Part shown: one piece after another, positions 23,414 to 39,543 of the stretch
How positions within the stretch are numbered: the stretch's first letter is position 1
Layout: each line of letters begins with the position of its first letter
From: a virus
Taxonomy: Duplodnaviria; Caudoviricetes
IMG/VR virus record: IMGVR_UViG_3300021399_000147
Location: 8,894 to 72,893 of that record
DNA length: 64,000 nt
Reading direction: 5' to 3' (one strand)
Notes under the pieces: generated by a model
Seen by the model: the letters and a program-made list of their open reading frames with translations, nothing else
Told to the model about the DNA's origin: nothing
Databases searched by the model: none
Position numbers and translations under genes: made by a program

Positions 23414-23421
23414 TTACCGTT

Positions 23422-23667: not shown

Positions 23668-23680
23668 AAGGAGAATTAAG

Positions 23681-23899: not shown

Positions 23900-23914
23900 A
23901 AGGAGAATAAGATA

Positions 23915-24088: not shown

Positions 24089-24092
24089 GATT

Positions 24093-24275: not shown

Positions 24276-24307
24276 AACCTAATTTTCATTGGGAAAGGAG
24301 AATTAAG

Positions 24308-24601
24308 ATGACAAAAGAATCCGAAGTAGTAAGAGATAGATTTGAAGCCTTAGTAAAGAAGTATGGATATAGAAGTATAAGGAATGTCTGCTTATCAGCA
24401 GGCATTACTGCTTCTAATCTATATTCCAATATTACAGGAGTGTATGACATATCCATTAAAAGAATGTTCAGGATAGCCAATGTTCTAGGCTGTGATGTGA
24501 CAGAGGTTATAGATGCATTTCACCACGACCTATATGAGGAGAATAAAGAGATAGTAGCAGAAGGTAAGAAACTTCCTGTTGAAGTGGTAGAAAATGTGTG
24601 A
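24308..24601 (+). CDS. XRE/Cro-C1 HTH transcriptional regulator
   Basis: SIRNVCLSAGITASNLYSNITG...SIKRMFRIANVLGCDV. Confidence 0.75.
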   Translation: MTKESEVVRDRFEALVKKYGYRSIRNVCLSAGITASNLYSNITGVYDISIKRMFRIANVLGCDVTEVIDAFHHDLYEENKEIVAEGKKLPVEVVENV

Positions 24602-24644
24602 TATCCTATACTCGTAAACAAAAACACACTTATTGTAAAGGAGA
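24573..24644 (+). promoter_or_regulatory. Cassette promoter and leader, copy 5 (overlaps 3' end of the XRE gene)
   Basis: TTGAAG(24579)-17-TATCCT(24602). Confidence 0.8.
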
Positions 24645-24650
24645 TTAGTT

Positions 24651-24971
24651 ATGGAAAACTACAACTTTAAAATTACAGAATGGTTAGACAATCAGGTAGA
24701 GTACACGAAGAAGCTGAGTGAGATTGTGGAATTTAAAGATGATGATGTGGAATTACACAATCTGGCAATGCACAGAGATAAGTACGAGGTCCATTTAGCA
24801 ACAGATACCTTGAGATTCATAGCCACAAAGTTAAATTTAGACTTATGTGTAGGCTCAAGGAGAAAATATGATAAAGAAAATCCTTATGAGGTGTTCTTTA
24901 TATATAAGGGCTTTAAGTTCTTAGATATAGAAACCGAAGAAGAATATCAGAAATACGGACCAGTGGTTTAA
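24651..24971 (+). CDS. Hypothetical protein
   Basis: ORF directly behind the cassette leader. Confidence 0.65.
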   Translation: MENYNFKITEWLDNQVEYTKKLSEIVEFKDDDVELHNLAMHRDKYEVHLATDTLRFIATKLNLDLCVGSRRKYDKENPYEVFFIYKGFKFLDIETEEEYQKYGPVV

Positions 24972-24984
24972 CTCGCTGATACTT

Positions 24985-25027
24985 CAAGCACTAGGAATGT
25001 AAAAGTTCCTAGTGCTTTTCTTTTTTA
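24985..25027 (+). terminator. Intrinsic terminator
   Basis: AAGCACTAGGAA-TGTAAAAG-TTCCTAGTGCTT followed by TTCTTTTTTT. Confidence 0.8.
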
Positions 25028-25082
25028 GATATGCTATCCTATTATTAGAAACAAGAACACACAGATTGAAAGGAGAGCCAAT

Positions 25083-25337
25083 ATGAAGAAACCTACATTA
25101 GTATTTTTTGATGAAGCTTATGGCTATACTGCATCAGCAACAAGAGAAGCAGGCAGAGACCTGACAGAGAAAGAAATGAGAAAGTGGTGGAAACACTACG
25201 CAAAGAGAGCACCTGAGTGTATAGCTATATCAGCAACCTATGAGAATGATGAGGGCGAAATTAGAGATATTACAGAAAACTGGGTGATGCACGAATGTGC
25301 CATGTATGCAGATGCACATAGTAATATTTTTAACTGA
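25083..25337 (+). CDS. Hypothetical protein behind partial cassette leader (copy 6)
   Basis: TATCCT at 25035, AACACAC and TTGAAAGGAG present, canonical -35 block absent. Confidence 0.6.
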   Translation: MKKPTLVFFDEAYGYTASATREAGRDLTEKEMRKWWKHYAKRAPECIAISATYENDEGEIRDITENWVMHECAMYADAHSNIFN

Positions 25338-25350
25338 AAGGAGACAGATT

Positions 25351-25596
25351 ATGTGCCACGGATGTAATGATTGCAAATGGTGTAAATGTTATAGAGGTGA
25401 CTATTGGACACCTGATGAATATGAGTGTCAAGGTGGATATGATATACCTGAAGATGTTATGCAGAGAGTATGGGAAAATGGTGAAGAGTGGAAAGATAAT
25501 GAAGAGCCCATCTGCCCTGCGTATGAAGAAGCACCTACAGAAGATGATGAGTATTGGGACAGATACGCTTATGAGGAGAATAAATCAGAGAGATAA
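25351..25596 (+). CDS. Cys-rich acidic small protein
   Basis: MCHGCNDCKWCKC..GDYWTPDEYEC..ICPAYEE. Confidence 0.6.
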   Translation: MCHGCNDCKWCKCYRGDYWTPDEYECQGGYDIPEDVMQRVWENGEEWKDNEEPICPAYEEAPTEDDEYWDRYAYEENKSER

Positions 25597-25597
25597 T

Positions 25598-25730
25598 TAC
25601 CTGTTGAAGGTACTTACTAGCTGTGAGACAATATACTTGTAAACAGTAATTGACAGCTAGTAAGTACTCCTGATGCTGAGTATACTCCGTCAGAAGTGCT
25701 GAACGGGTCACAACAACACACAAAGGAGAG
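25598..25730 (+). promoter_or_regulatory. Cassette promoter copy 7 with a structured insertion in the leader
   Basis: TTGAAG(25604)-17-GACAAT(25627); perfect 15-bp inverted repeat 25610-25624/25653-25667. Confidence 0.7.
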
Positions 25731-25735
25731 AAGAT

Positions 25736-26056
25736 ATGATACAGTTAGATGGAGTTTACCCAAGTAATATCAATGGAGTAGTAATTGAGAAGTTTGAAGA
25801 TATGCTGGCAGACCATCCTCTTGATGACAGATATGCTAAAGATATTGTGACAACCAATAATGCTAATATTCAGGCATATTCAGATGAGTTTGCAAAGCAG
25901 GTAGCATATGCAGAGAATATTGATTTTGGTGAATGGATTAAGTACAACACAGGATTGATGCCTTATATCAAGAAAGCCGCAAACACAGTACACTGGTTAC
26001 ATGAGAATGGATATACAGAGTACAAGGTAAATATGCAGTCGGGAATCATTAAGTAA
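25736..26056 (+). CDS. Hypothetical protein
   Basis: ORF track; AAAGGAG RBS. Confidence 0.65.
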   Translation: MIQLDGVYPSNINGVVIEKFEDMLADHPLDDRYAKDIVTTNNANIQAYSDEFAKQVAYAENIDFGEWIKYNTGLMPYIKKAANTVHWLHENGYTEYKVNMQSGIIK

Positions 26057-26070
26057 GAAGGAGAACAGTT

Positions 26071-26421
26071 ATGGCAACAATGATTAAATATGGAACAAAA
26101 TTAGGTGAAAGTCTTATTCACGATATGAATTATTATAGGCATGATGGAGATACACTCTATGAAGTGTATGGTAAACCATCTAAGAAAAAGAGAGATAGTT
26201 GGGAGAAGATTAGACGGGATTGTGAGTATCTCAAAGGCAGACACCTTCATATAATAGGAGCATCAAGTTATAGTTATTCCTGTATATATGCTTATCCTGT
26301 ATATGATTTTAGGGATAACAGCATTATATCTATGATTATTAGAAAAGAAACATCAGGCAGCACATATGAGATGGAAATGCCATTAGATGATTACGAAAGA
26401 TTGATAATAAGAAGGCATTGA
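26071..26421 (+). CDS. Hypothetical protein
   Basis: LYEVYGKPSKKKRDSWEKI...IIGASSYSYSC. Confidence 0.65.
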   Translation: MATMIKYGTKLGESLIHDMNYYRHDGDTLYEVYGKPSKKKRDSWEKIRRDCEYLKGRHLHIIGASSYSYSCIYAYPVYDFRDNSIISMIIRKETSGSTYEMEMPLDDYERLIIRRH

Positions 26422-26479
26422 GAATGACTGCCTTAAAGAAAATTGATTACGAGGAATTACCTTTCAATTAAATGTGTGT

Positions 26480-26518
26480 TTAGTCGTGTAGGTGTAACAG
26501 CTTGCACGACTATTTTTT
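26480..26518 (+). terminator. Intrinsic terminator
   Basis: TAGTCGTGTAG..TTGCACGACTA followed by TTTTTT. Confidence 0.7.
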
Positions 26519-26637
26519 AGGCGTAAAAATCAATAGCGCCAGGAAGCTCAGGATTCGATTTTTATTATTCGATTGATAAAATGTTCATTGAAGCAGATTA
26601 AAAGCTCAGGAAAGAGCTGGAAATGAGAAGTCAAAAC

Positions 26638-26707
26638 TTCCTGTTGTAGCTCATTATCAGATGTGCTATCCTATTCTTGTAAAAAGTAATACATATTGAA
26701 AAGGAGA
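26638..26707 (+). promoter_or_regulatory. Cassette promoter and leader, copy 8
   Basis: TTGTAG(26644)-17-TATCCT(26667). Confidence 0.8.
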
Positions 26708-26715
26708 TTACCATT

Positions 26716-26940
26716 ATGAATGAGAATGTAACATACCTATTAGAGAAGCATGGCCTTGAAAACTATGAAGATTACGCTGCCATGTTAGGAAATATGAGTC
26801 AGGCGGCAAAAGAAATGCTCGAAAGTACAGAGATGGGCGAAAGAGATGATATAGAGAAGAATAACCTTAAGATATTAACAGAGTTACTTCCTATATGCTC
26901 AGACTTATTCATTAACTGTGACCCGTATTACAGAAAATAA
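26716..26940 (+). CDS. Hypothetical protein
   Basis: ORF behind the cassette leader; stop abuts the next promoter. Confidence 0.65.
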   Translation: MNENVTYLLEKHGLENYEDYAAMLGNMSQAAKEMLESTEMGERDDIEKNNLKILTELLPICSDLFINCDPYYRK

Positions 26941-27011
26941 TTCCTATTGATAGGCTAACATAGATGTGTTAGCCTATTATTGTAAACAAACACACATATT
27001 GAAAGAGAGGA
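26941..27011 (+). promoter_or_regulatory. Cassette promoter and leader, copy 9 (hairpin-forming)
   Basis: TTGATA(26947)-17-TAGCCT(26970); inverted repeat ATAGGCTAACA/TGTTAGCCTAT. Confidence 0.8.
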
Positions 27012-27018
27012 AACCGAT

Positions 27019-27297
27019 ATGATGTATGGAATGAAACGAGAGTTACCTAGAAATAAAGAGGGAAAGAAGTTATACCCAGTATGCTCATGGGAAAAGAATC
27101 AGCACAAGCTCTATAACGCCCATGATAGAGTGATGAATGCCATTAGTGATGGCAAAGCAGATTGGGATGACCTTGATAAAGTTGAGAAAGCTATGGGAGC
27201 ATTTGAAGCTCATGTTATAGATGGCACAGTATTCGCAACATGGGAAGACCGAAATCTGATAATGGATTATATATTCGCATATAATGCCAGACACTAA
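27019..27297 (+). CDS. Hypothetical protein
   Basis: ORF behind the cassette leader. Confidence 0.65.
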   Translation: MMYGMKRELPRNKEGKKLYPVCSWEKNQHKLYNAHDRVMNAISDGKADWDDLDKVEKAMGAFEAHVIDGTVFATWEDRNLIMDYIFAYNARH

Positions 27298-27317
27298 TGT
27301 CTGGCATTTATTTTTTT
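27283..27317 (+). terminator. Intrinsic terminator
   Basis: AATGCCAGACA-CTAA-TGTCTGGCATT followed by TATTTTTTT. Confidence 0.75.
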
Positions 27318-27385
27318 CCTGTTGATAGGTTAGCATCAGTATGCTAACCTATTCTTGTAAACAAAAACACACTAAAAAGAGAGGT
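27316..27385 (+). promoter_or_regulatory. Cassette promoter and leader, copy 10 (hairpin-forming)
   Basis: TTGATA(27322)-17-TAACCT(27345); inverted repeat ATAGGTTAGCAT/ATGCTAACCTAT. Confidence 0.8.
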
Positions 27386-27392
27386 AACCATT

Positions 27393-27593
27393 ATGTTTGA
27401 AGAAGTTATTGCCAATGCAGTAAAAGCCTATGATGAAGAAGTAGCTGAGGTTAAGATTGAAGATAAGGTTGTCACCATCACATATACAGACGGTGATACA
27501 TACACAGGTGAAGTCAGAATAGATGGCTCAACCATTCTGTTAGATTTTCACAGAACCTTCATCATCAGAATAGACCTTAATGCCAATATGTAA
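27393..27593 (+). CDS. Hypothetical protein
   Basis: ORF behind the cassette leader. Confidence 0.6.
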   Translation: MFEEVIANAVKAYDEEVAEVKIEDKVVTITYTDGDTYTGEVRIDGSTILLDFHRTFIIRIDLNANM

Positions 27594-27608
27594 AGAGAGG
27601 CGGCAAAT

Positions 27609-27746
27609 ATGAAGATGTATTTAGAAGTAATAAATGGCTATGAGGTTTATTATACAGATGGTGATTGGGTTGTAGAAGATGAATATGGCTGTTGCACACC
27701 ATATGAGACATTTGAAGATGCCAAAGCGGCAGCAGAAGAAATGTAA
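27609..27746 (+). CDS. Hypothetical acidic protein (45 aa)
   Basis: Manual translation MKMYLEVINGY...AAAEEM; GAGG RBS. Confidence 0.55.
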   Translation: MKMYLEVINGYEVYYTDGDWVVEDEYGCCTPYETFEDAKAAAEEM

Positions 27747-27748
27747 AT

Positions 27749-27820
27749 TACCTATTGCAGGTTAGCAGTCAGAGTGCTAACCTATACTTGTAAACAAACA
27801 CACACATATTTGAAAGGGGT
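27749..27820 (+). promoter_or_regulatory. Cassette promoter and leader, copy 11 (hairpin-forming)
   Basis: TTGCAG(27755)-17-TAACCT(27778); inverted repeat AGGTTAGCA/TGCTAACCT. Confidence 0.8.
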
Positions 27821-27827
27821 AAACATT

Positions 27828-28085
27828 ATGCAGAGAAGAAAATCATTATCCGAGAAAGATGTTAGAACAGTTTTAGCCGTCATTGAGTGCTTCCAAGAGC
27901 AGAATCATTATAGATTTGATGAGATGAACCGTATCATGGGAAATCTGACAATCGAAGATATGATAGCCTTGAAGTCAAAGCTAGAGAAGTGGAAGGGCGA
28001 AGAAGTTGTAGATGAGTATGAAGATGTGGACATGGATGAGTATAGAGAATCCTATGCTGATTATATAGCACCATATATCTATTAA
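27828..28085 (+). CDS. Hypothetical protein with acidic tail
   Basis: ATG 27828 after the cassette RBS. Confidence 0.65.
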   Translation: MQRRKSLSEKDVRTVLAVIECFQEQNHYRFDEMNRIMGNLTIEDMIALKSKLEKWKGEEVVDEYEDVDMDEYRESYADYIAPYIY

Positions 28086-28100
28086 GAAAGGAGAAATATT

Positions 28101-28304
28101 ATGTTAATGATTACAACACCAAATGGTAAATTAGAGCTTAGAAGTTTTGGCAAGTCCATGTACGGAGGATGGTATTTAGATTACTATGACTTCAACCTTG
28201 AGAAGATGGACGGTATAAAGAGAAATACGCTCCGTGAGTTATGTGAGTGGGCAGGTGTAGATAAATCTACTATGATTAAGAGAGTAAAGAGATGGGACAA
28301 TTAA
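28101..28304 (+). CDS. Hypothetical protein
   Basis: ORF track; AAAGGAG RBS. Confidence 0.6.
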   Translation: MLMITTPNGKLELRSFGKSMYGGWYLDYYDFNLEKMDGIKRNTLRELCEWAGVDKSTMIKRVKRWDN

Positions 28305-28407
28305 AATAATCGTGCCAGGATGACTTTCCAGACACTTTAAACATCTATGTCGATAAAAGTATCATCTGAGATATTTAGGTGTCTGGAAAAGCGAAGGCAG
28401 AATAAAA

Positions 28408-28486
28408 TTCCTGTTGAAGCAGTATTTCCAATATGCTATCCTGTTCTTGTAAGAAATAACACACATTTGAAAGATATGAAAGGAGA
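28408..28486 (+). promoter_or_regulatory. Cassette promoter and leader, copy 12
   Basis: TTGAAG(28414)-17-TATCCT(28437). Confidence 0.8.
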
Positions 28487-28492
28487 ACCTAT

Positions 28493-28660
28493 ATGTTGAT
28501 GGCAGTATTCAATGCTAAGGTGTATCTTGAAAGAGCAAACAGCGACCACTTTGAGGCATCAAAGTTACTTCACAGAGATTATCAGAGAGGATACTACACA
28601 GAAGATGAGTACCTTGAGATGATGGATGTGCTTGCATCTAAGATGATGTGGGAGCACTGA
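28493..28660 (+). CDS. Hypothetical protein (55 aa)
   Basis: Manual translation MLMAVFNAKVY...MMWEH behind the cassette RBS. Confidence 0.6.
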   Translation: MLMAVFNAKVYLERANSDHFEASKLLHRDYQRGYYTEDEYLEMMDVLASKMMWEH

Positions 28661-28672
28661 TAACTGAATAAG

Positions 28673-28744
28673 TTCCGCTTGAAAGAATAGCAACTAAGTG
28701 CTATCCTGTTCTTGTAAACAGAAAACACACATTTGAAAAGGAGA
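28673..28744 (+). promoter_or_regulatory. Cassette promoter and leader, copy 13
   Basis: TTGAAA(28679)-17-TATCCT(28702); short inverted repeat ATAGCA/TGCTAT. Confidence 0.8.
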
Positions 28745-28751
28745 TACCAAT

Positions 28752-29015
28752 ATGAAAATTGAAATTTTAATTCCATACCTTATTCGTCAAGTAGTTGATG
28801 TAACTGTTACAGAATGTCCTATGGGCATCAAGTGTTACGAAAGTGACGAGATTGAGTTTATGTTATTTGGAAGAACCCATGTGTTGACCTTCACAATAGA
28901 AGAGAGACCTGACAGTAAAACCTTGTACTATACGATTGATAGAAATTATGATGACCAGAAAGCTCTTAGAGAGAATGAATTTACCTACAATTTAGTGAAG
29001 GAGGTGACAGTATGA
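28752..29015 (+). CDS. Hypothetical protein
   Basis: ORF behind the cassette leader. Confidence 0.6.
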   Translation: MKIEILIPYLIRQVVDVTVTECPMGIKCYESDEIEFMLFGRTHVLTFTIEERPDSKTLYYTIDRNYDDQKALRENEFTYNLVKEVTV

Positions 29016-29179
29016 GTCAGCGTCCATGTATAGGTTGTATCTACTATAAGCAGTGCGGTGAAAGCACAAGAACAATGCCATGTGAAGGCAGAATGACAAA
29101 GACCGATAAGAAAAGACGAGAGGAACTAATAAGAGAGGGAGAAAGGGAGCAGGCTAGAAGAGCCTTCTACGAAGATTAA
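29012..29179 (+). CDS. Small Cys-containing protein (55 aa)
   Basis: Manual translation MSQRPCIGCIYYKQCGESTRTMPCEGR; GGAGGTG RBS. Confidence 0.6.
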   Translation: MSQRPCIGCIYYKQCGESTRTMPCEGRMTKTDKKRREELIREGEREQARRAFYED

Positions 29180-29288
29180 AAGGGAGAGAGGAAAACAGTA
29201 TGATAAAAGGATATTACACAGACGGGGATGGAAAGACATATGCGTATGAGAACGGCGAATGGAAAGAAATCGAAGAAGGAGATAAGAG

Positions 29289-29744
29289 ATGAACACACCA
29301 TATAATGAATATTCAGCAGGAGATGTAGCAGAGATATTAAAGGTAGACAGGTCAACAATTACATATTGGTGTAGAAAAGGTTTGATAATTGCAAAGAGTG
29401 TTAGTGATGGTGCAAAAAATGCCCGTTGGGTTATTCCAGAAAAAGAAGTAGAATATCTTAGGCAGCTCGGTAAGCAGTATGGAAGTAAAGGAATCATGAA
29501 GCACTATGAAAGAGTGGGAGAAGAGATAACTCCAGCTGTTGCAGTACCTACTATAAAAGATGATACCCCTACAACAGAAATCAAAAAAGAGGCGGCACCA
29601 AAGAAGTTCGATATAGATGAAATAGCCTTACAAATAGCACAAATCCAAGATATAAAAGAAGAACTAAATAATCTGGATGCAAGAAAGACCCAACTTCTTA
29701 ATGAGCTGGAAGCAATAAGAAAAGACATTCAGCCATATCTCTAA
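29289..29744 (+). CDS. Excisionase/MerR-like HTH DNA-binding protein with coiled-coil tail
   Basis: YSAGDVAEILKVDRSTITYWCRKGLI.A......RWVIPE. Confidence 0.75.
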   Translation: MNTPYNEYSAGDVAEILKVDRSTITYWCRKGLIIAKSVSDGAKNARWVIPEKEVEYLRQLGKQYGSKGIMKHYERVGEEITPAVAVPTIKDDTPTTEIKKEAAPKKFDIDEIALQIAQIQDIKEELNNLDARKTQLLNELEAIRKDIQPYL

Positions 29745-29748
29745 TCAG

Positions 29749-29785
29749 AAATAGGGGCGGTATAAAGAGTACTGCTCCTATTTTA
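29749..29785 (+). terminator. Intrinsic terminator
   Basis: AATAGGGGCGGTA..TACTGCTCCTATT followed by TT. Confidence 0.6.
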
Positions 29786-30367
29786 ATATATCCATATATA
29801 GTCACTAATAAATCATAATATCCCTAATAAATCATCAATCAAATCAGAAAAGCATAATCCAATCAGAAAAGCAGGGCGGCATAAAAGACACCTGTGATTA
29901 TAAAAATAACCAGTAATACCATATTCCAATATAATCAATAGAAGTAGTAATAGTATAGATAGATATACCAACATGCCCTCTTGCCTTCTTTTAGCCTTGT
30001 ATTCACAGAAATGTTGTAGCCATCTGTGTTTGTCTTAGTTTTTAGTACATCTTCCTTTATCCATTTTTAGCCCCTTTCCCATCATCCTTCTCCCTCATCC
30101 TTATTATCATTAGCCCGGCGCCCGCCGTCGATATTTGATTTCAATCAAACAATTTCGCCATCCTAGGCCCAAAATGGCACGTTTTTGAGCCATTTTTGCT
30201 CCATTGGCGATTCTCGTTGTGCAAGGTGCACAAGTCTCCATTTCAGCATCCCCGCAGGGTTTGGGGAGGATGGCAACGATATTTCGATAGGTAGTGTTTT
30301 TTTTTATCGAGTAGGAAACACGATATTTCGTAATGCCATCCTGAGGTATTGTGATTTTGCACAAAAG

Positions 30368-30435
30368 TTCCTATTGTAGGAAAGTGCTGGACGTGATACC
30401 ATAAAATAAAAACAGCACACAGATTTGAAAGGAGA
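30368..30435 (+). promoter_or_regulatory. Cassette promoter and leader, copy 14
   Basis: TTGTAG(30374)-17-TACCAT(30397), GCACAC, TTGAAAGGAG. Confidence 0.7.
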
Positions 30436-30443
30436 ACCTAATT

Positions 30444-30695
30444 ATGATGAACTTTGGAAGATTGGAAAGCCTGATGTACGATTGTAGAATGAACCTGTAT
30501 TGGAGAGATGGCTACGATTTTATAGACCTGAGAGATGCAAAGGTGGCAAAGATAGAGGGTAATGAGATTGTCCTCTATGATGAGAAAGAAAACCTATATT
30601 GGCACTATGAGATAGATTCATTAGAGGCTAAGCTAGATTCCCTTAAAGATATCCATGCCAATGAGTTTAAGAGTCTATTCCGTATGTCAAGATAA
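30444..30695 (+). CDS. Hypothetical protein
   Basis: ORF behind the cassette leader, followed by hairpin TAGCACCGC/GTGGTGCTA and T-run. Confidence 0.6.
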   Translation: MMNFGRLESLMYDCRMNLYWRDGYDFIDLRDAKVAKIEGNEIVLYDEKENLYWHYEIDSLEAKLDSLKDIHANEFKSLFRMSR

Positions 30696-31038
30696 TCCCT
30701 TAGCACCGCCCATTGATTTGAGTGGTGCTATTTTTAGGTCTCCATATTCCCCATTATAACAGGCTCCATTTGCCTGCCCATCAGGTAATTCTCCCATCTA
30801 CCATCCTCCATTGGCCCATCACGCTCCCCCGGTAATCTCCGTAGGGGCAGATGGAACATGGCCCATTAACGTGGTGCTGGAGGTAGAGGTATGGAGGGTG
30901 TGAGGAGCGGGAGGAGAAAATGTGTGACTAAATTTTTACATTATATAGAAGAAACACAACTAAAAACAGCTCAAATGCAGTAATAGCAAGCGTTACAAGC
31001 ATTTTAGAAACTTTTTTCAAAAAATTTTAAAATTATAC

Positions 31039-31067
31039 TTGTAAACAAGAATAAATTGTGCTACTGT
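31039..31067 (+). promoter_or_regulatory. Promoter of the GG/CC-free island
   Basis: TTGTAA-17-TACTGT with TG extension; downstream leader carries AACACAC twice and TTGAAAGGA. Confidence 0.55.
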
Positions 31068-31191
31068 ATATACAGAAACAAACAAGTCTAGTTGTTTCTA
31101 GTCGTGTTCACGACTTTGTTAGTATCTAAACTAACACACTATAACACACAGTAACGTAAAAACATTGTAAAATTGAAAGGAAAAAACGAAC

Positions 31192-31683
31192 ATGAAAAAG
31201 AACACAGCAACAACTAACAACAATGCAACTAATAACAATAATAGTTTTGAGATGACAAAAAAAGTCTTTGCTACTAAAGAGCAACTACTTGATTTTACTA
31301 AGTATATGAGCGAACATAATTTTAACACAGCTACAGCTCTTACAAGAGAAGATAAGCCTATCAACGTTACAGTTGCCACTCACTTAGTAACGTACACAGG
31401 AGATACAAACAAGGGAACGTTGATAAGTGTTTGGAATACAAACAAAAAGAGTCGTACTTGCTACAGTGTACGCATAAGCGTTGATTTACAGAAAAAGCTC
31501 GAAGCTATGAATAAATCATTAAAAGTGCTTTTCAGTAATTTTAAGTATGCTGATTCTAATGAAAATAGATGTGATTTTTATAGTATCGACGACGTAAAAC
31601 TGTTTTTTGATAAGATGTTTAGTTATACAGAGTCTGCTAAGAGCGTCAAGAAAATTACAGAAAGCGAAGTGAAAACAGCGTGA
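31192..31683 (+). CDS. Hypothetical protein in the GG/CC-depleted island
   Basis: 163 aa, N/T-rich N-terminus; only 1 Pro, 2 Gly and 1 Trp. Confidence 0.65.
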   Translation: MKKNTATTNNNATNNNNSFEMTKKVFATKEQLLDFTKYMSEHNFNTATALTREDKPINVTVATHLVTYTGDTNKGTLISVWNTNKKSRTCYSVRISVDLQKKLEAMNKSLKVLFSNFKYADSNENRCDFYSIDDVKLFFDKMFSYTESAKSVKKITESEVKTA

Positions 31684-31802
31684 TAATATTTACAGTTTGT
31701 AGCATTACATTTTTAATCACATTATATAAAATATTCAAGTAAAAACAGAGTCGCAAGTGTATAAAAAGCACTTGCGACAATATGAAAGTGAGATAATAGA
31801 AA

Positions 31803-32123
31803 ATGAATAGTAATACTTTAGCTTTAATGTATATAGAACTTGCAAAAGTTAATAGTGAAAGTAATATTGATATTAAAAATATAGAATTATTAAATACTAG
31901 TGACGTGACTATATATACTTATAGAAATAGTGAAAATTCAAACGATAACGATTATATAGTTGTTATGTATAGTGATTTTTTAGATACTAATTCAAATGAA
32001 ACTTTTTGCGCACAATTGTTTTTTAATGTATCTCAATATAATGTCACACATAAACTCAATAATGAGTATGTGAGAAGTAGACAACTTGAAGTAGCTTATC
32101 TATATGCATTAAATATGCACTAA
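31803..32123 (+). CDS. Hypothetical Asn-rich acidic protein in the GG/CC-free island
   Basis: 106 aa with no Gly, Pro or Trp; GG-less RBS GAAAGTGAG. Confidence 0.55.
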   Translation: MNSNTLALMYIELAKVNSESNIDIKNIELLNTSDVTIYTYRNSENSNDNDYIVVMYSDFLDTNSNETFCAQLFFNVSQYNVTHKLNNEYVRSRQLEVAYLYALNMH

Positions 32124-32137
32124 ATAATAAACTTATA

Positions 32138-32176
32138 TAGCTTGCTAGTCTTAAAACACTAGCAAGCTATTTTTTT
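32138..32176 (+). terminator. Intrinsic terminator
   Basis: TAGCTTGCTAGT-CTTAAAAC-ACTAGCAAGCTA followed by TTTTTTT. Confidence 0.85.
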
Positions 32177-32324
32177 ATGCTTTATTAAATATGTTATATA
32201 TTATTTTTCTCTGTTTTCTTGACGTTCTATATACTTAAAATATCATTCTAATATAAAATATTATTTACATACTTTTTTATCGTTACAAGTCGATTTTTGA
32301 CGCTATTTAATTGCGTACAATCTT

Positions 32325-32340
32325 TGTTTCACGTGAAACA
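32325..32340. promoter_or_regulatory. parS: parS centromere-like site (ParB/Spo0J box)
   Basis: Perfect palindrome TGTTTCACGTGAAACA, matching the Firmicutes parS consensus. Confidence 0.8.
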
Positions 32341-32363
32341 TTACTACGCTACCACCCCCTATT

Positions 32364-32377
32364 CGTACATATGTTCG
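32364..32377. promoter_or_regulatory. Possible LexA (Cheo) box
   Basis: CGTACATATGTTCG, 13/14 match to CGAACATATGTTCG. Confidence 0.4.
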
Positions 32378-32406
32378 ATAGAGAGCTACGTGAGCGAGTA
32401 GGCACC

Positions 32407-32546
32407 CGGACACAGCCTGGTAAGTTTTCATATAACCGTGACCTGTCCTTCAAAATAACTTCGGACACAGCCTAGGTAGATTTACTTATAACCGTGCCTG
32501 GTCGTTCACTAAAATACTTGCCTGGAATGATTTTCGTATAACCGTG
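32407..32546 (+). repeat. Direct repeats upstream of the terminase genes (candidate pac/cos-associated)
   Basis: CGGACACAGCCT at 32407 and 32462; TATAACCGTG at 32431, 32487 and 32537. Confidence 0.7.
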
Positions 32547-32619
32547 AGAGGTCGCGGAAGGCTGTGGTTTCAATAAATGCCAAAATGATGTGTCATTTTA
32601 GCCAATATATTTGTAAAAA

Positions 32620-33030
32620 ATGGCGCGTATGTGTTATAGTATGTTTACAAAGGAGGGGCTAGATTATATGTCACCAACACCAGTTACTTTAGCTAGAACA
32701 ATGGCAAATGCGCTGAACCGCCTATATGGCACACATATTGTTATCAACACAACACAGTTCTTTGGAGGCGAGGGTAAACTCGTCAGGATGTACGTCATCA
32801 AGGATGCGTATTTCTTGGGCAGCAAGAAGAACTACTCGGACAAGGAGTTGTTTAAGACTGCTAGTGGAGTATATACCTGTCTTTTTATGAGGGATATGTT
32901 GTTTGCGTTTCAAGGTAAACCTCCGGCAGAGATTACAAACGAGGGTTACCTTAATGTTTTTGCTAAGAAGAATGGACAAGCAAGCATAGATTATATGCTG
33001 GAAAAGTATTTAGGAGGTAAGGAAGAATGA
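32620..33030 (+). CDS. Hypothetical protein upstream of terminase
   Basis: ORF track; exact start uncertain. Confidence 0.6.
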   Translation: MARMCYSMFTKEGLDYMSPTPVTLARTMANALNRLYGTHIVINTTQFFGGEGKLVRMYVIKDAYFLGSKKNYSDKELFKTASGVYTCLFMRDMLFAFQGKPPAEITNEGYLNVFAKKNGQASIDYMLEKYLGGKEE

Positions 33031-33518
33031 TTAGTTCACAGATGCCAGAAGACGCCGTACCTAGCGTCAAGAAACACATTTTAGAGGGGACGTGCGTAAC
33101 ACAGGACGGTACACGTCTTACCCCAAAAGAAGATAAGTTTATCAGTTTGTACATCCAGTACTCGGATCCTATAAAGGCAGCTAGAGAAGCTGGGTACATG
33201 GTACGACCTGACAGAAAGAACAAGGACTTGGCTTATGCTCACAAAGGTAAATCTCTTTTAGCTAAAGACTATATCCGTAATGAGATTGCGGCTAGAATGG
33301 ATATGATAAGAGATGAACAGATAGCAGATGCTAAGGAAGTTCTTGTATATCTTACTAAGGTAATGCGAGGAGAAATCAAGGACCAGTTTGATATTGATGC
33401 TTCATTGTCTGAAAGGACTGCAGCCGCTAAGGAACTGAACAGAAGGTTCAAAGAGCTTGAGGATGCGAAAGAACATGGACCAGCTAAGGAAGTACATCTT
33501 GTTCTGAGGAGGGAATAA
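33027..33518 (+). CDS. terS: Terminase small subunit
   Basis: LTPKEDKFISLYI..DPIKAAREAGY, IADAKEVLVYLTKVMRGE, ERTAAAKEL; position. Confidence 0.85.
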   Translation: MISSQMPEDAVPSVKKHILEGTCVTQDGTRLTPKEDKFISLYIQYSDPIKAAREAGYMVRPDRKNKDLAYAHKGKSLLAKDYIRNEIAARMDMIRDEQIADAKEVLVYLTKVMRGEIKDQFDIDASLSERTAAAKELNRRFKELEDAKEHGPAKEVHLVLRRE

Positions 33519-34825
33519 TGGGTAGACCGAGAAAAGCTAAAGAAAAGAAGGGAGAGATTATCTTAGATGTTAATGAGAATATCGCTCCCGTTTATTTTTC
33601 CGCAATGGATGATATTTTAGACCATGGGCACGTACACTATGTCTTTAAAGGGGGACGAGGCTCTGCTAAATCTTCTTTTATTTCAGAGATGATACCACTA
33701 CTACTCATAAATAATCCTAAAACTCATGCCATAGTGTTTAGAAAGATTGGTAATACTATCAAGAACTCTGTATGGGCACAGGTAGTTTGGGGAATAGATA
33801 GATGGGGACTCAGAGATTACTTTCAGATACCTAAGACTATTGCCAATCCTATTGTATATAAACCTACAGGACAGCAGATATTATTTATGGGACTTGATGA
33901 CCCTAACAAAGTAAAGTCTGTAAAGTTGCCTTTCGGATATATCGGAATAACATGGTGGGAAGAGCTTGACCAGTTCTCTGGTGAAAAAGAAATTCGTAAA
34001 GTATTACAGTCAACAATGCGTGGTGGTACAGATTTTTGGGACTTTAGAAGTTTTAACCCACCTATCTCTAATCTTAATTGGGCTAATCAGTATGCCGCAG
34101 ATGCATTGAGCAGAGAGAATACCCTTGTAACATCAACGAACTACAATGATATTCCAGCAGAGTGGTTAGGACAAGCATTTATAGATGAAGCTATGGACTT
34201 AAAAGAAACTAATCCTAGAGCGTATGAGCATGAATATTTAGGAATACCTGTAGGTACAGGTGGTAATGTCTTTGAGAACGTAGAACCTATGTACATGACA
34301 GATGAGTTTATCAATTCCTTTGAGAGAACAAATGCAGGTGTTGACTGGGGGTGGTACCCAGACCCGTTTGCTTTCACTAAATGTAGTGTGGATATTAGTA
34401 GAAGGTGTGTTTATATCTTTGCGGAGTTTAGATGTAATAAGTTATCTAACAGACAGACGTTTGATAAACTGTATCATGAATTACAGTATTGTGGCAGACC
34501 TTATTTATCGCCTGATGAGATTGTTACTTGTGATAGTGCTGAGCCTAAATCTATCTCAGACTGGAAAGATTATGGAGCATTTGGAGCTAGACCTGTGAAG
34601 AAAGAGCCTGACAGCATCAACTATTCTATGAAGTGGTTACAGTCAATGAAACATATCTACATAGACCCTAAAAGATGCCCTGAGACCTATAAAGAGTTTA
34701 TAGAGTACGAATATGACAGAGATAAAGATGATGAGGTAGTCAGTGGCTATCCTGATGCAAACAACCACAGTATAGATAGTGTAAGATATGCGACCAGTGG
34801 ATATTGGAGAAGAAGAGGTCAGTGA
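33518..34825 (+). CDS. terL: Terminase large subunit, PBSX family
   Basis: KGGRGSAKSS, WWEELDQF, SFNPP, GVDWGW..DP, CDSAEPKSI, NNHSIDSVRYA. Confidence 0.95.
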   Translation: MGRPRKAKEKKGEIILDVNENIAPVYFSAMDDILDHGHVHYVFKGGRGSAKSSFISEMIPLLLINNPKTHAIVFRKIGNTIKNSVWAQVVWGIDRWGLRDYFQIPKTIANPIVYKPTGQQILFMGLDDPNKVKSVKLPFGYIGITWWEELDQFSGEKEIRKVLQSTMRGGTDFWDFRSFNPPISNLNWANQYAADALSRENTLVTSTNYNDIPAEWLGQAFIDEAMDLKETNPRAYEHEYLGIPVGTGGNVFENVEPMYMTDEFINSFERTNAGVDWGWYPDPFAFTKCSVDISRRCVYIFAEFRCNKLSNRQTFDKLYHELQYCGRPYLSPDEIVTCDSAEPKSISDWKDYGAFGARPVKKEPDSINYSMKWLQSMKHIYIDPKRCPETYKEFIEYEYDRDKDDEVVSGYPDANNHSIDSVRYATSGYWRRRGQ

Positions 34826-34854
34826 TTGAATATATGATGGCTGAATGTTATACT
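34826..34854 (+). promoter_or_regulatory. Sigma-A promoter inside the packaging operon
   Basis: TTGAAT-17-TATACT with TG extension. Confidence 0.55.
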
Positions 34855-34876
34855 ACATATATAAAGGAGGGCAAGT

Positions 34877-35230
34877 ATGGAGAAAAGAGTGGTCAACATT
34901 TTAGGTACAGAGTGGACCATATTATTTGGTACAGAATCACAGTTTCCTAATCTTAAAGATAACGATGGATATATGGATAGTTCAATAAGGTGCATAGTTA
35001 TTGATGATATGTCCGCTTCTGAAAATGATGCTTCCGCTAAGAAAGATATGGATGCATATAAGAAACAGGTACTGCGACATGAGATTGTTCATGCGTTTAT
35101 GTTTGAAAGCGGTCTTGACAGCAGTAGTAATTCACATGAGCATTGGGCTGTAAACGAAGAAATGGTAGATTGGATGGCTATTCAGTTACCAAAGATAATT
35201 GATGCTTGTAGAGAAGCATTAGCATTATAA
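34877..35230 (+). CDS. HEXXH zinc-metallopeptidase-like phage protein
   Basis: VLRHEIVHAFMFESGL..NEEMVDWMAIQLPKI. Confidence 0.65.
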   Translation: MEKRVVNILGTEWTILFGTESQFPNLKDNDGYMDSSIRCIVIDDMSASENDASAKKDMDAYKKQVLRHEIVHAFMFESGLDSSSNSHEHWAVNEEMVDWMAIQLPKIIDACREALAL

Positions 35231-35240
35231 GGAGAAACTT

Positions 35241-37016
35241 ATGAGCTTATGGGACAAATTGAAAGGAGCATGGCGAAAAATGCTGAAACGTGAGGTAATA
35301 GAAAAAGTCTTATCTGTAAAGACCGCTGTTTCTGATGACATGGTAAACAGTATTCAGTTATGGTCACAGATGTATGAAGGTAGAGCCCCATGGTTAAAAA
35401 ATCCTGAACCTGGCAATCCTGAGAGAGTAGTTTCTTTAGGACTGCCAGCACTTATAGCTAGTGAGAAAGCTAGAATGGTGACTCTTGAAATGGAGAGTGA
35501 GATTACACCTCCAATGAAGGATGTAGAGAAAGTCAATCCTGATTATGTGCCGCCTTCTGTTGATGCCGAAACAGGTGAAGTCAACATGGGTAGAGAAACA
35601 ATGGTAATCACAGAACCTGAACCTGATGGTCCTACTGAGAGAGCAAACTTCTTGAATGATGCTTACCAGAATAAATTGTTGAAGCATATAAGAAGGCAGA
35701 TAGAATATGGAATAGCTAAAGGTGGTCTAGTAATCAAACCTTATGTTATTCAGTATGAAGAAGGCTCACCTACTATTGAAGATGATGAGGATAAAGATAG
35801 ATTATCAGCAGAAAAGCCTTTACCTAAGTATGAGATAGAGTTTGACTTTGTACAGGCTGATAGATTCTATCCTCTGTCTTTTGATAACAACGGAAAGATA
35901 ACTGAGGCAGCTTTTATTCAGACTAAAGTAGATAATGATAAAGTATATACGCGCCTGGAGCATCATATACTTATCGGAAGAACTGTAACAGTAAGAAACT
36001 ATGCTTTTGTTAATTCTAATGATAGCAATCGAATATGGTACAAGACGGCTAATGATTTAGGTAAGCCTTGTAAATTGTCTGAGGTAGCTGAATGGGCTAA
36101 TCTTCAGGAAGAGGTAACAATCAAGAATGTAGACAGACCTTTGTTTGCATATTTCAAGATGCCTGAAGCTAATACGATAGACCCATATTCGCCACTTGGT
36201 GTATCAGCTTATAGCCGAGTTATTTCTCTTATCAGAGATGCCGACGAACAGTATTCAAGAATGCTGTGGGAGTTTGAAGGTGGAGAACTTGCTATTGATG
36301 TAGACAGAGATGCCTTAAAGATACAGGAGTATCAGAATGGTCAGCATCAAACAGTATTACCTACAAAACAAGAACGTTTGTTCAGAAAGGTAGACTTGAA
36401 TAGTGAAGAAACATACAATGTCTTTGCCCCTACACTTAGGGATGAGTCTATTTCTCATGGATTGAACGTTATTCTTACAAGAATAGAAGATGTTGTAGGA
36501 TTTAGTCGAGGCACACTTTCAGAAGAAGCCGACGTCAATGCTAAGACCGCTACTGAATTAAAGATAGAGAAGCAGAGAAGCTATGCCACAAATAGAGATA
36601 TTCAGTTAGCATTGGAAGATGCACTTAGAGATGCTATCTATGCTATGGATGTATATTGCACTCTATACAAAGTAACACCGCCTGGGGAATATGAGGTATC
36701 ATTTGAATGGGATGATTCTATCATAGTAGATACTGAGGCAGAGTTAGAGAAACGTCTTACAATGGTAAACGCTGGCATCACATCTAAGCTAGAAACAAGA
36801 ATGTGGTACTTCGGTGAAACTGAGAATCAGGCAAAAGCCGCATTACAGAAAGTTGAAGATGAGAAGAAACAGAGCATGGAAACTAATATTCAAGCTCAGG
36901 CACAGCTTGGTGATGTAGCTCAAGGTAAAGACTTCTCAGGTAATAACAATAATCCAAACACTCAGCAGAAGGCATTTAATAACGCTGAAAAAACTTCTGC
37001 CAAAGTTGTTGGATAA
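35241..37016 (+). CDS. Portal protein (A118/SPP1-like)
   Basis: 591 aa after terL; SLGLPALIASEKA, YSPLGVS, WEFEGGE, FEWDDSII. Confidence 0.88.
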   Translation: MSLWDKLKGAWRKMLKREVIEKVLSVKTAVSDDMVNSIQLWSQMYEGRAPWLKNPEPGNPERVVSLGLPALIASEKARMVTLEMESEITPPMKDVEKVNPDYVPPSVDAETGEVNMGRETMVITEPEPDGPTERANFLNDAYQNKLLKHIRRQIEYGIAKGGLVIKPYVIQYEEGSPTIEDDEDKDRLSAEKPLPKYEIEFDFVQADRFYPLSFDNNGKITEAAFIQTKVDNDKVYTRLEHHILIGRTVTVRNYAFVNSNDSNRIWYKTANDLGKPCKLSEVAEWANLQEEVTIKNVDRPLFAYFKMPEANTIDPYSPLGVSAYSRVISLIRDADEQYSRMLWEFEGGELAIDVDRDALKIQEYQNGQHQTVLPTKQERLFRKVDLNSEETYNVFAPTLRDESISHGLNVILTRIEDVVGFSRGTLSEEADVNAKTATELKIEKQRSYATNRDIQLALEDALRDAIYAMDVYCTLYKVTPPGEYEVSFEWDDSIIVDTEAELEKRLTMVNAGITSKLETRMWYFGETENQAKAALQKVEDEKKQSMETNIQAQAQLGDVAQGKDFSGNNNNPNTQQKAFNNAEKTSAKVVG

Positions 37017-37022
37017 TTAGTA

Positions 37023-37051
37023 TTTACACGCTAGAAAATATGTTCTATAAT
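37023..37051 (+). promoter_or_regulatory. Sigma-A promoter upstream of scaffold and capsid genes
   Basis: TTTACA-17-TATAAT. Confidence 0.7.
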
Positions 37052-37057
37052 GAATGT

Positions 37058-37136
37058 GGGCAAGATGTAGATATTTGCCATATCCTGACCCTCCTAAAAG
37101 TGTTAACGGTAGTGCTGCCACTGCCGTTAACTAGGG
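37058..37136 (+). ncRNA. Candidate structured RNA or leader with exposed anti-SD CCCUCCU
   Basis: GGCAA/TTGCC hairpin, CCCTCCT, 13-bp hairpin 37102-37131. Confidence 0.35.
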
Positions 37137-37267
37137 TAATAACTCTGTAATGAGATTATTATAAATAAGTCTTGCAATCGGACATTTAAACGATTGTACA
37201 TTCCAGTGTAGAAAGTGACTACACATTTAAACAACAAACTGATAGAAGAATGTAGAAGGAGAAAAGT

Positions 37268-37939
37268 ATGTTACTAAAAGAAATTTTTGACAAGGCTACT
37301 TCCGAAAACAAGTCTTTAACTTGGGAGGAATTTGAAGCACTTGCGAAGGAAAACAAAGCAAAGTTTACAGACCTATCTGAGGGTAGATATGTAGACAGGC
37401 AGAAGTATGAGGATGACCTTGCTAAAAAGGACACAGAGATTACATCTCTGAATGACACTATCACAACCAGAAACAATGATTTAGAAACATTGAAAACACA
37501 GTTAGCTGAGGCAGGAAGTGATGCTGGAAAGCTAGACGAGCTTAATGCTAGTCTTGTTGCTTTACAGTCCAAGTATGATGCTGACACCGCAGCCCTACAG
37601 GGTAAACTTTCAGCACAGGCTTATGAGTTTGCAGTTCGTGATTTTGCAGGTAAACAGAAATTCTCTAGCAATGCCGCTCGTAGAGATTTTGAAAGAGCGT
37701 TGATAGAAAAACATCTTCCTATGGAAGATAAAGCAATACTTGGGGCAGATGATTTCTTGAAAGTATATGCAAAAGCTGACCCAACTGCTTTTGTAGTTAA
37801 AGAGACCGCTCCAAAAACACCAGCTCCAGAATTTGCAGGAAGTGCAACTGGAACAAAGCCAAGTGGAAGTAAAATGACTTTATCAGAAATGATGAAGGCT
37901 AAAAATGAAAACCCAGATTTTGTTGTAAATTTTGATTAA
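37268..37939 (+). CDS. Capsid scaffolding protein (phage GP20-like)
   Basis: Coiled coil, YVDRQKYE motif, position before the capsid gene. Confidence 0.8.
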   Translation: MLLKEIFDKATSENKSLTWEEFEALAKENKAKFTDLSEGRYVDRQKYEDDLAKKDTEITSLNDTITTRNNDLETLKTQLAEAGSDAGKLDELNASLVALQSKYDADTAALQGKLSAQAYEFAVRDFAGKQKFSSNAARRDFERALIEKHLPMEDKAILGADDFLKVYAKADPTAFVVKETAPKTPAPEFAGSATGTKPSGSKMTLSEMMKAKNENPDFVVNFD

Positions 37940-37955
37940 CCGAAAGGAGTAAATT

Positions 37956-39035
37956 ATGGGATTATTTGACGCAAAGCTGTTTAACGGCGAGGTATTCCAG
38001 AAGTATGTTGACAGAGTACCTAATGTACATCTTAATGAACTTATTAAGTCAGGTGCAATCGTAGCAAGACCAGAGCTTGCAAGTGCAATGGCAGACCAGA
38101 TTGGTGGTAACTACTTGACAACACCTCTTAAGGGTCTCATCAATCACACAGTACCACTTAACTATGATGGTACTACAGATATTACATCTGAAAGCACACA
38201 GACATATTCACATTCCAGAGTAGTAGTTGGTCGTGCGGCAGCATGGACAGAGAAAGACTTCTCATATGATATTACAGGCGGAGTAGATTTCATGCAGAAT
38301 GTAGCTGAACAGGTTTCAGAGTACTGGGATGAAATTGACCAGAAAACACTTGTTAATATCATGAATGGTATCTTCTCTATGGATTCATCTGTTGAAGCTA
38401 ATGCAGAATTTGTAGAGGAACATACATCTGATATTACAGGTGTAACAAATAGCGAAGGCGTAGTTGGTTACATGGACGGCTCATCTCTTAACTCAGCTAT
38501 GCAGAAAGCATCTGGTGACCACAAGAATCAGTTCAGTCTTTGCTTGATGCATTCCGCTGTTGCTACACATCTTGAAAACTTAAAGGTACTTACATACCTT
38601 AAATACAATGATGCTAATGGTATTGAGAGAGACCTTAACATTGGTACTCTGAACGGAAGAATGGTAATCATTGATGATGATATGCCTGTAATTACAACAG
38701 GAGAAGGTGCATCAGCAGTTAAGAAGTATGTAACTTATGTATTCGGTAAGGGTGCAATTGAGTTTACAAACTGCGGTGCTAAAGTTCCTTACGAAATGAG
38801 CAGAGACCCTAAGACTAACGGTGGTCAGGATACACTGTATTCAAGACAGAGAAAGTGCTGGTCACCATATGGTATCAGCTTTACAGGTATCAACGAAATT
38901 GCAACACCTTCACCTACAGATGCAGAGCTTGCAACAGGTAGCTTCTGGAATCTTGTTAGCACAGGTGGAACAAGCAATATCAAGTATATTGCTCACAAGG
39001 CTATTCCTATCGCAAGAATGATTTCACTTGGTTGA
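37956..39035 (+). CDS. Major capsid protein
   Basis: 359 aa; FDAKLFNGEVF, GRMVIIDDDMP, E.SRDPKTNGGQD.LY.R. Confidence 0.88.
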   Translation: MGLFDAKLFNGEVFQKYVDRVPNVHLNELIKSGAIVARPELASAMADQIGGNYLTTPLKGLINHTVPLNYDGTTDITSESTQTYSHSRVVVGRAAAWTEKDFSYDITGGVDFMQNVAEQVSEYWDEIDQKTLVNIMNGIFSMDSSVEANAEFVEEHTSDITGVTNSEGVVGYMDGSSLNSAMQKASGDHKNQFSLCLMHSAVATHLENLKVLTYLKYNDANGIERDLNIGTLNGRMVIIDDDMPVITTGEGASAVKKYVTYVFGKGAIEFTNCGAKVPYEMSRDPKTNGGQDTLYSRQRKCWSPYGISFTGINEIATPSPTDAELATGSFWNLVSTGGTSNIKYIAHKAIPIARMISLG

Positions 39036-39092
39036 TAGTTAGCATTCCTTCATACACCCTAAATTCTTTTCCTCAGAAAGGCGGATTTAACT

Positions 39093-39539: not shown

Positions 39540-39543
39540 ACGT

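Follow-up and report, generated by a model that had tools for sequence, protein, structure and literature searches.

The DNA analysed here (the window) is a 64,000-bp stretch, positions 8,894 to 72,893 of the IMG/VR record IMGVR_UViG_3300021399_000147. It is part of a 72,893-bp viral contig whose ends overlap by about 126 bp, pointing to a circular assembly, and whose completeness is put at 98% by CheckV. The phage belongs to a rumen-type siphovirus clade, and all retained open reading frames (ORFs) of at least 100 amino acids (aa) lie on the plus strand. Directly upstream of a conserved 120-aa ORF and the TerS, TerL and portal genes lies an island in which the dinucleotides GG and CC (GG/CC) are almost absent, and which carries a promoter with its leader, two small genes (ORF1 and ORF2), a tiny hydrophobic ORF and a terminator. 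The island is bordered on its left by an untranslated element dense in GG/CC, and on its right by a conserved motif that precedes the packaging operon (Table 1).

Table 1. Features of the island and its flanks (window coordinates; RBS, ribosome-binding site)
Feature	Positions	Strand	Remarks
GG/CC-dense untranslated element with CCATT/GGCCCAT repeats	30736..30914	+	Left border of the island
GG/CC-depleted island	30915..32351	none	7 sites, none in 31435-32351
Promoter P1, -10 TAAAAT (31028-31033) followed by ACTTGTAAACAA	31005..31048	+	Aligned by eye with 14 early cassettes; consensus scan
Leader	31100..31181	+	Hairpin 31100-31115; AACACAC at 31133 and 31143; RBS ATTGAAAGGA at 31172-31181
ORF1, 163 aa, with 2 Gly, 1 Pro and 1 Trp	31192..31683	+	Founder of a small phage-only family
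Hydrophobic ORF, 20 aa, GTG start overlapping the ORF1 stop	31680..31742	+	Read from the sequence
GG/CC-free hairpin between the ORF1 unit and ORF2	31750..31778	+	
ORF2, 106 aa, no Gly, Pro or Trp	31803..32123	+	ORFan, absent from the closest relative (L049)
Intrinsic terminator, 13-bp stem and T run, GG/CC-free	32137..32177	+	
Promoter-like P2, TTGACG-16-TATCAT, 10/12	32219..32246	+	Reads across parS, border motif and pac repeats; kept in L049
parS, perfect palindrome TGTTTCACGTGAAACA, GG/CC-free variant of the consensus	32325..32340	none	Match to the 16-bp Firmicute consensus
Right border motif TACCACCCCCTA	32350..32361	+	Conserved where islands are otherwise unalignable between lineages
Three direct repeats TTTT(C)NTATAACCGTG (TATAACCGTG boxes), about 50 bp apart	32425..32546	+	Candidate TerS boxes
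120-aa ORF (32668) and TerS (33027-33518)	32668..33518	+	First genes of the packaging operon

Between 31435 and 32351 (917 bp) there is no GG or CC where local base composition predicts 31.7, and the whole island (1437 bp) holds 7 where 55.5 are expected on the same basis. All of these lie at 31179, 31357, 31376, 31399, 31413/31414 and 31433. An initial annotation, made from the letters of the DNA, had described both the empty run and six sites in 30915-31434, and recounting reproduced the former and every coordinate of the latter. The exact probability of a 917-bp run free of GG/CC is 5e-13 under local composition and 2e-24 under genome composition, while that of 7 or fewer sites where 55.5 are expected is 3e-16. 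Elsewhere in the genome the longest GG/CC-free gap is 101 bp, and the lowest 917-bp window outside the island has an observed/expected ratio (O/E) of 0.58. Given the probability under local composition and the length of the next-longest gap, AT-richness, which the annotation had named as a possible trivial cause, does not explain the depletion. Ultimately, the depletion is neither chance, nor AT-richness, nor a one-off. A sliding-window comparison of genome and relatives, of the kind proposed with the annotation, finds the island unique in its genome and the relatives' islands purged rather than normal.

The borders are as abrupt as had been claimed: the dense run, which packs 44 GG/CC into the 200 bp that precede the island, stops at 30913/30914, and CCACCCCC begins at 32352. 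Most of the surviving sites are forced by Pro, Gly or Trp codons or by the RBS, as originally proposed, although the CC at 31376 belongs to a GCC Ala codon and is unforced. ORF2 does lack Gly, Pro and Trp and is preceded by an RBS without GG (GAAAGTGAG, 31784-31792), and both hairpins that had been called GG/CC-free are so. Other steps also differ between the island and the rest of the genome, with O/E values of 1.16 versus 0.48 for CG, 1.63 versus 1.16 for GC, and 0.65 versus 0.90 for TC.

Level and conservation of the constraint

Three kinds of evidence locate the constraint. Junctions between codons hold 17 GG/CC where 2000 codon-order shuffles give 125±9, with a shuffle minimum of 89. Synonymous codons that contain either dinucleotide are nearly unused, with GCC serving 1 of 147 Ala, TCC 0 of 148 Ser, ACC 3 of 203 Thr, and AGG and CGG together 1 of 62 Arg. 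Furthermore, non-coding DNA 5′ of the promoter and 3′ of the terminator is purged of GG/CC to an equal degree. The constraint therefore acts on DNA: to the extent that protein function permits, GG/CC is banned from both strands. This constraint suffices to strip Gly, Pro and Trp from any gene in the slot: island proteins contain 1.6% Gly, 0.3% Pro and 0.5% Trp, compared with 5.5%, 2.8% and 1.3% in the rest of the genome, and most surviving GG/CC fall in the RBS or in conserved codons for these three residues.

Relatives were retrieved through the 120-aa ORF (L001-L003), TerL (L004, L005 and L047) and the ORF1 family (L049-L052 and L201-L203). Pooled over 11 islands (10.4 kb), 67 GG/CC are found against 533 expected, with coding-strand O/E values of 0.03 for CC and 0.20 for GG. 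Every readable lineage of the ORF1 family shows the depletion, including all seven clusters at 50% identity, and in the three genomes read whole (G001-G003) the island is the sole such stretch. The order of elements is also shared. An untranslated block of 150-350 bp, very rich in GG/CC and built of GGCCCATT-type repeats, changes abruptly to a GG/CC-poor stretch of 0.8-1.4 kb. This stretch contains a gene of the ORF1 family overlapped by a tiny hydrophobic ORF, in some cases a further small gene, and a terminator; then follow the conserved CCACCCCC border, direct repeats and the packaging operon with TerS. Accessory genes vary by lineage, with ORF2 in the window phage and other ORFs in L005 and L051. 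The constraint thus follows genome position, independent of which genes are present, and is kept through divergence to less than 25% protein identity. Selection on GG/CC in the DNA, as first proposed, is borne out by the diverged lineages together with the codon junctions, synonymous choice and non-coding DNA. Among about 40 phages with a TerL roughly 55% identical to that of the window phage, no comparable island was found.

A partial counterpart is seen in L038, whose TerL is 76% identical and which has minus-strand genes in the same slot (2031-3424). There CpG has an O/E of 1.93 versus 0.68, GG/CC depletion is partial, and the CCCACCCCC border and a degenerate parS are retained. This slot was considered as a control and set aside; its 206-aa protein has no detectable relation to the ORF1 family.

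Transcription unit, products and genome context

The early region (17627-30435) contains 14 copies of a promoter-leader-RBS module, in the order TTCCT-TTGAAG, 17-nt spacer, TATCCT, ACTTGTAAACAA, AACACAC and ATTGAAAGGAG. P1 reads as a CC-free version of this cassette promoter, with TATCCT changed to TAAAAT and the upstream TTCCT also replaced, and the +1 motif ACTTGTAAACAA, the two AACACAC blocks and ATTGAAAGGA of the island match the cassettes. This RBS holds the one non-coding GG of the island. The layout TTTTAAAATT(A/G)TACTTGTAAACAA recurs in L001. By these likenesses, the island appears to be the fifteenth and last early cassette, written without CC. The -10 box TAAAAT is nearer to the host consensus, which suggests that the island may be the first unit read. 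The earlier view of its genes as early-type fits the +1 motif, leader and RBS that they share with the 14 cassettes. Nearly all 14 cassettes hold CC at two fixed places, namely in TTCCT upstream of the -35 box (TTACCT in two copies) and in the -10 box, mostly TATCCT or TAACCT; only the version in the island lacks CC.

ORF1 is predicted to consist of an alpha/beta core and a disordered basic tail of Lys, Thr and Ser (predicted local distance difference test, pLDDT, 62). Among 1.8 billion representatives, its family falls into 28 clusters when grouped at 90% identity and into 7 at 50%, and all members on contigs that reach the flanks lie in this slot. ORF1 has no Pfam match and only a weak PHROG match, to a family of unknown function; Foldseek returned nothing at E<=0.001 in PDB and BFVD, and the ESM Atlas yielded nothing above 0.8. 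A role as a MotA-like activator is not claimed, since the best VIA-align match (T4 MotA C-terminal domain, Z 7.2) is at noise level; AcrIIA11 aligns at only Z 4.2 by the same method, also within noise. The tiny ORF is conserved at 17-32 aa and translationally coupled, overlapping or abutting the ORF1 stop in the relatives read at that junction. It is purely hydrophobic except at its C-terminal end and is missed by gene callers. ORF2 has no homologue but itself, and its single-sequence model is unusable (pLDDT 40).

The genes to the right belong to a packaging operon of SPP1 type. TerS matches PF03592 (5.7e-17) and SF6 G1P (PDB 3ZQP, 1.5e-6), the TerL nuclease domain matches SPP1 G2P (PDB 2WBN, 2.6e-23), and the portals of the relatives match SPP1_portal (PF05133). 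The nearest characterised TerLs, 46% identical, come from the phiCP39O group of Clostridium perfringens, for which putative permutation and terminal redundancy are listed. By this homology the island adjoins a candidate pac region of SPP1 type. As in SPP1, where pacL-pacC-pacR is bound by the TerS protein G1P, homologous TerS, TerL and portal genes are accompanied by repeat boxes upstream of the TerS operon. The SPP1 pac site spans a few hundred bp and is not known to have a dinucleotide-free operon beside it. The ORF before TerS likely starts at ATG 32668 behind AAGGAGG (MSPTP...), as in the relatives, rather than at 32620.

The parS palindrome lies 12 bp inside the right border, with an identical site in L052 and a copy with one mismatch in L049; matching sites also occur in a metagenome-assembled genome (MAG) of Faecalimonas. 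In the wider clade, in which TerL is about 55% identical, host-type parS sites with 0-1 mismatch stand in 1-4 copies upstream of TerL (L013, L017, L019, L022, L026, L039, L040, L042 and L046). No ParB-like protein was found among 36 proteins scanned with Pfam, a scan that was not aimed at ParB. Sites in this position near the terminase may have a role in segregation, in the carrier state or in spores, or in the biology of the pac site.

Between PolA and the beta-clamp gene the phage encodes three TAGT paralogues (PF20691; L048 7206-8072 and 8069-8896; window 544-1395), and island-bearing relatives also encode them, with three each in G001 and G002 and at least two in G003. One member of the family is the T2/T6 enzyme by which glucosyl-hydroxymethylcytosine (hmC) DNA receives a second glucose (PMC13216743). 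The 98%-complete genome contains no match to PF12851, PF00145, PF00303, PF01555 or PF01702 and none of the base-priming enzymes sought (TET/JBP, C5-, N4- or N6-methyltransferase, ThyA-like hydroxymethylase, DpdA/TGT). A link between TAGT genes and the island was considered and is unsupported outside the clade: five distant relatives with one or two TAGT genes have no strong island, their lowest 800-bp windows having O/E values of 0.29-0.74.

The host is a guess. The best endolysin match, 66% identical, lies on a contig of a Faecalimonas MAG, from which a Lachnospiraceae-like host might be guessed; the phage database contained no near DNA match to the phage. Across the whole genome, several restriction words are strongly avoided, with O/E values of 0.03 for GATC, 0.19 for CGCG, 0.24 for GGCC and 0.36 for CCGG, and no GAATTC where 18.5 are expected. 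The phage DNA is therefore exposed to nucleases, and the avoidance of GATC, CGCG, GGCC and other words points to probable hosts rich in such restriction systems. In the genomes G000, G001-G003, G006-G008, G010 and G016, GATC occurs at 0-37 sites per 60-75 kb (O/E 0.00-0.15) and CGCG and GGCC are likewise avoided; GAATTC, GAGCTC and ACATGT have zero copies in G000.

Candidate readers of GG/CC

The conserved purge implies that something reads the GG/CC step on island DNA. The explanation ranked first, which we favour only tentatively, is that a first-expressed operon is kept invisible to a GG/CC-dependent DNA-targeting activity, by analogy with the pre-early region of T5. The early operon would have to work on the incoming genome while this activity is present, the reader being either a host activity of the protospacer-adjacent motif (PAM) or restriction type, or the phage's own nuclease or modification. 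Its products (the basic ORF1-family protein, the 20-aa membrane peptide and, in some cases, the product of a variable accessory ORF) would then shield the remaining genome or render it independent of the targeting activity. If the products protect the remainder in this way, selection against GG/CC would therefore be concentrated on this one operon. The dense repeat element at the inner border would be, as a guess, an insulator or stop element. This ranking rests on a penalty confined to one operon, on the logic of T5 and the Autographiviridae, and on the existence of two-letter PAMs.

In T5, EcoRI or CRISPR systems restrict the phage only through sites in the pre-early region, whose end is marked by an untranslated injection stop signal rich in repeats (bioRxiv 10.1101/866236). 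The proposed likeness is twofold, as an early operon would have to be free of nuclease targets, given that the rest of the genome relies on its products for protection, and the inner side is bounded by an untranslated repeat-rich element, here the GGCCCATT-repeat element that is always present. T5 differs, however, in having fixed ends, 10-kb terminal repeats and a proven two-step injection, compared with SPP1-type headful machinery here. Furthermore, no A1/A2 homologues are known in this phage, a dinucleotide is avoided rather than a 6-bp site, and the island measures 1-1.4 kb rather than 10 kb. Autographiviridae evade type I restriction-modification because their leading region, and only this region, is devoid of the motif (PMC12455610). 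There too, as in T7, motif position decides and the motif is present elsewhere in the genome, although those phages face a defined type I site and enter slowly, driven by transcription, with no protein recoding reported. Localised motif avoidance in early regions is known. For CRISPR PAMs a target of two letters is typical; the type I-F PAM, CC, is one example and is depleted in Pseudomonas phages (PMC12174588). Restriction-site avoidance in phages is presented in one study as genome-wide motif depletion (PMC4246573). Such cases share with the present one the removal by selection of a short word read by defence, and GATC, GGCC, CGCG and GAATTC are avoided here, but they are mild statistical shifts compared with near-total removal in one kilobase with sharp borders and the loss of three residues. 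Literature searches returned no near-complete dinucleotide purge of a kilobase, which here is joined by sharp borders, recoded proteins and a dense neighbouring block of the same dinucleotide.

Several points weigh against a shielded first-expressed operon, the main weaknesses being the SPP1-type packaging, the missing host and PAM, and the GG/CC-dense neighbour. The initial annotation had placed the island near a probable genome end. A position at a physical end, or first entry, was not borne out, as TerS, TerL and portal are SPP1/SF6-like and contigs cross both borders. With such machinery, headful packaging and permuted ends are to be expected, and the island need not be the first part to enter. 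Because the ends of headful-packaged DNA vary, its status as first-injected segment is unproven, and two-step injection is not indicated. Without delayed entry, a cut elsewhere should kill as surely as a cut in the island. The flanking element is full of GG/CC and of GGCC, a word avoided elsewhere in the genome, and GG/CC is not depleted genome-wide (O/E 0.9). CpG is freed from its genome-wide depletion inside the island, perhaps through CGT codon use, and this explanation does not otherwise account for it. BLAST of window positions 30001-50000 against 401 genomes from the family of the best endolysin match and 47 from its genus identified neither host, CRISPR type nor spacer. The matches consisted of prophage terminase homology and short chance matches, nothing more; no repeat array surrounded any of the 11 short matches tested for arrays, five others were read in context, and one recurrent short match falls within a bacterial dprA-like gene. 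As in anti-CRISPR (Acr) operons, the island has small, fast-evolving genes of unknown fold in a fixed slot between conserved modules, with probable strong and early expression, and a PAM-free acr operon could never itself be targeted. Unlike them, it shows no homology to known Acr proteins: Pfam, PHROG and fold searches with ORF1 and ORF2 gave no similarity to known anti-defence proteins, and Pfam (E<=0.1) no Aca-type helix-turn-helix gene.

The main rival, which we consider unlikely, places the reader in the phage's own DNA modification. The phage would mark its DNA after replication at GG/CC, the three TAGT transferases extending the mark, and the first-expressed operon would stay unmarked so that unmodified host RNA polymerase could read the incoming genome; alternatively, the island would avoid sites at which glycosylation of both neighbouring modified cytosines is impossible. 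On this view the dense element would act as an insulator or terminator that is hyper-modified. The TAGT genes beside PolA and the clamp gene, their presence in G001-G003, and the CC at fixed positions of the cassette promoters but not of the island promoter argue for this explanation. There are also precedents: in kinetoplastids RNA polymerase II is halted by glucosylated base J, and the T-even alpha-glucosyltransferase leaves one hmC of hmC-hmC unglucosylated. However, the 98%-complete genome yielded no priming enzyme, avoidance of GGCC and CCGG persists across the genome, which is unexpected if GG/CC is protected, all other pre-replication genes have normal GG/CC, and the five TAGT-bearing distant relatives are without a strong island. 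An improbable alternative is that a physical property of the DNA matters, GG/CC being the most A-philic step and one that forms G-quadruplexes and i-motifs. Its absence would serve structure at pac or in the carrier state, for example as a segment proof against spore proteins, which induce A-form, as a confined loading zone for ParB at parS, or as a handle for the terminase. The island does abut the pac repeats, parS lies close to its border with copies in L052 and L049, parS clusters stand upstream of the terminase in many distant relatives, and the switch from dense to free is abrupt. Most island-bearing lineages, though, lack parS, and islands are missing from the relatives that carry parS clusters; no packaging or partition system is known to require a dinucleotide-free kilobase, and the island is a normal transcription unit whose proteins bear the cost.

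The remaining explanations are less probable again. Were the cause at the level of RNA, the early transcript would avoid GG and CC on account of an endoribonuclease, Rho acting on YC-rich RNA, or internal pauses at sites resembling Shine-Dalgarno sequences. On the coding strand TC is low (O/E 0.70) while GA is not, and CC is more depleted than GG; but two unrelated RNA words would be required instead of one DNA word, DNA upstream of the promoter (80-250 bp) and the spacer that follows the terminator are purged to an equal degree, and since G-richness disfavours Rho, the removal of GG is left unexplained. Very unlikely is a mutational footprint of a CC-specific cytosine deaminase or context mutagen, acting for instance on single-stranded DNA at the pac cut. 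The region adjoins the site where DNA ends are made, and the remaining GG/CC are mostly conserved codons and the RBS. Against this, the purge extends to both strands, the products to be expected show no enrichment beyond the genome level (CT and AG have O/E values of 1.13-1.17 in islands and 1.14-1.15 in the rest), the borders are base-sharp beside a GG/CC-dense block, and there is no AT runaway, the GC and CG steps being enriched (1.79 and 1.11). Close to refuted, finally, is foreign composition, in which a recent moron from an AT-rich donor would lack GG/CC as a by-product. The dinucleotide signature is indeed unlike the rest of the genome and ORF2 is an ORFan, yet the depletion goes far beyond expectation at 28% G+C, the slot is purged even with unrelated genes while the family is confined to the slot, and promoter, leader and RBS are the phage's own.

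The significance differs between these readers. A DNA-level ban that strips three amino acids means a severe penalty per site, and hence a concrete molecular reader to seek. If the reader is host defence, the island would mark the weak point of the phage together with first-line counter-defence genes, in a slot-specific family; if it is the phage's own modification, this would be hypermodification specific to sequence context without a recognisable priming enzyme. The island signature is simple and can be scanned for in any phage genome. In extension of a shielded first-expressed operon, it is possible, if rather doubtful, that unrelated phages keep their first-expressed operon GG/CC-free in response to a widespread reader of host or phage origin, with the dense block as a stop or insulator. 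If true across unrelated lineages, this would amount to a general rule of phage genome design and a signature for pre-early anti-defence genes.

The dense left element and additional depleted stretches

The left element has a C-rich first half and a G-rich second half, and contains no ORF. GGCCC occurs in 11 of the 11 left elements and GGCCCA in 9. An RNA fold over 30696-30920, a stretch that includes the preceding terminator hairpin, gives z = -2.7, while the elements alone give z from -0.05 to -2.5 (-1.2 in the window phage), and a structured RNA is not claimed; Rfam gave no match in 29500-33200. Each left element carries 5-10 GGCCCATT/GGCCATTA repeats (window, L001-L005, L047, L049, L051, L052 and L201). 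GGCC is concentrated in these elements, with about 6 by eye in some 200 bp of L001 and more in L051, though the genomes otherwise avoid this word. Upstream of the main island, L047 (862-1214) and L005 (1818-2153) each have an extra short GG/CC-free stretch with a single gene, and that of L005 carries its own GG/CC-dense element, as if the module had been duplicated.

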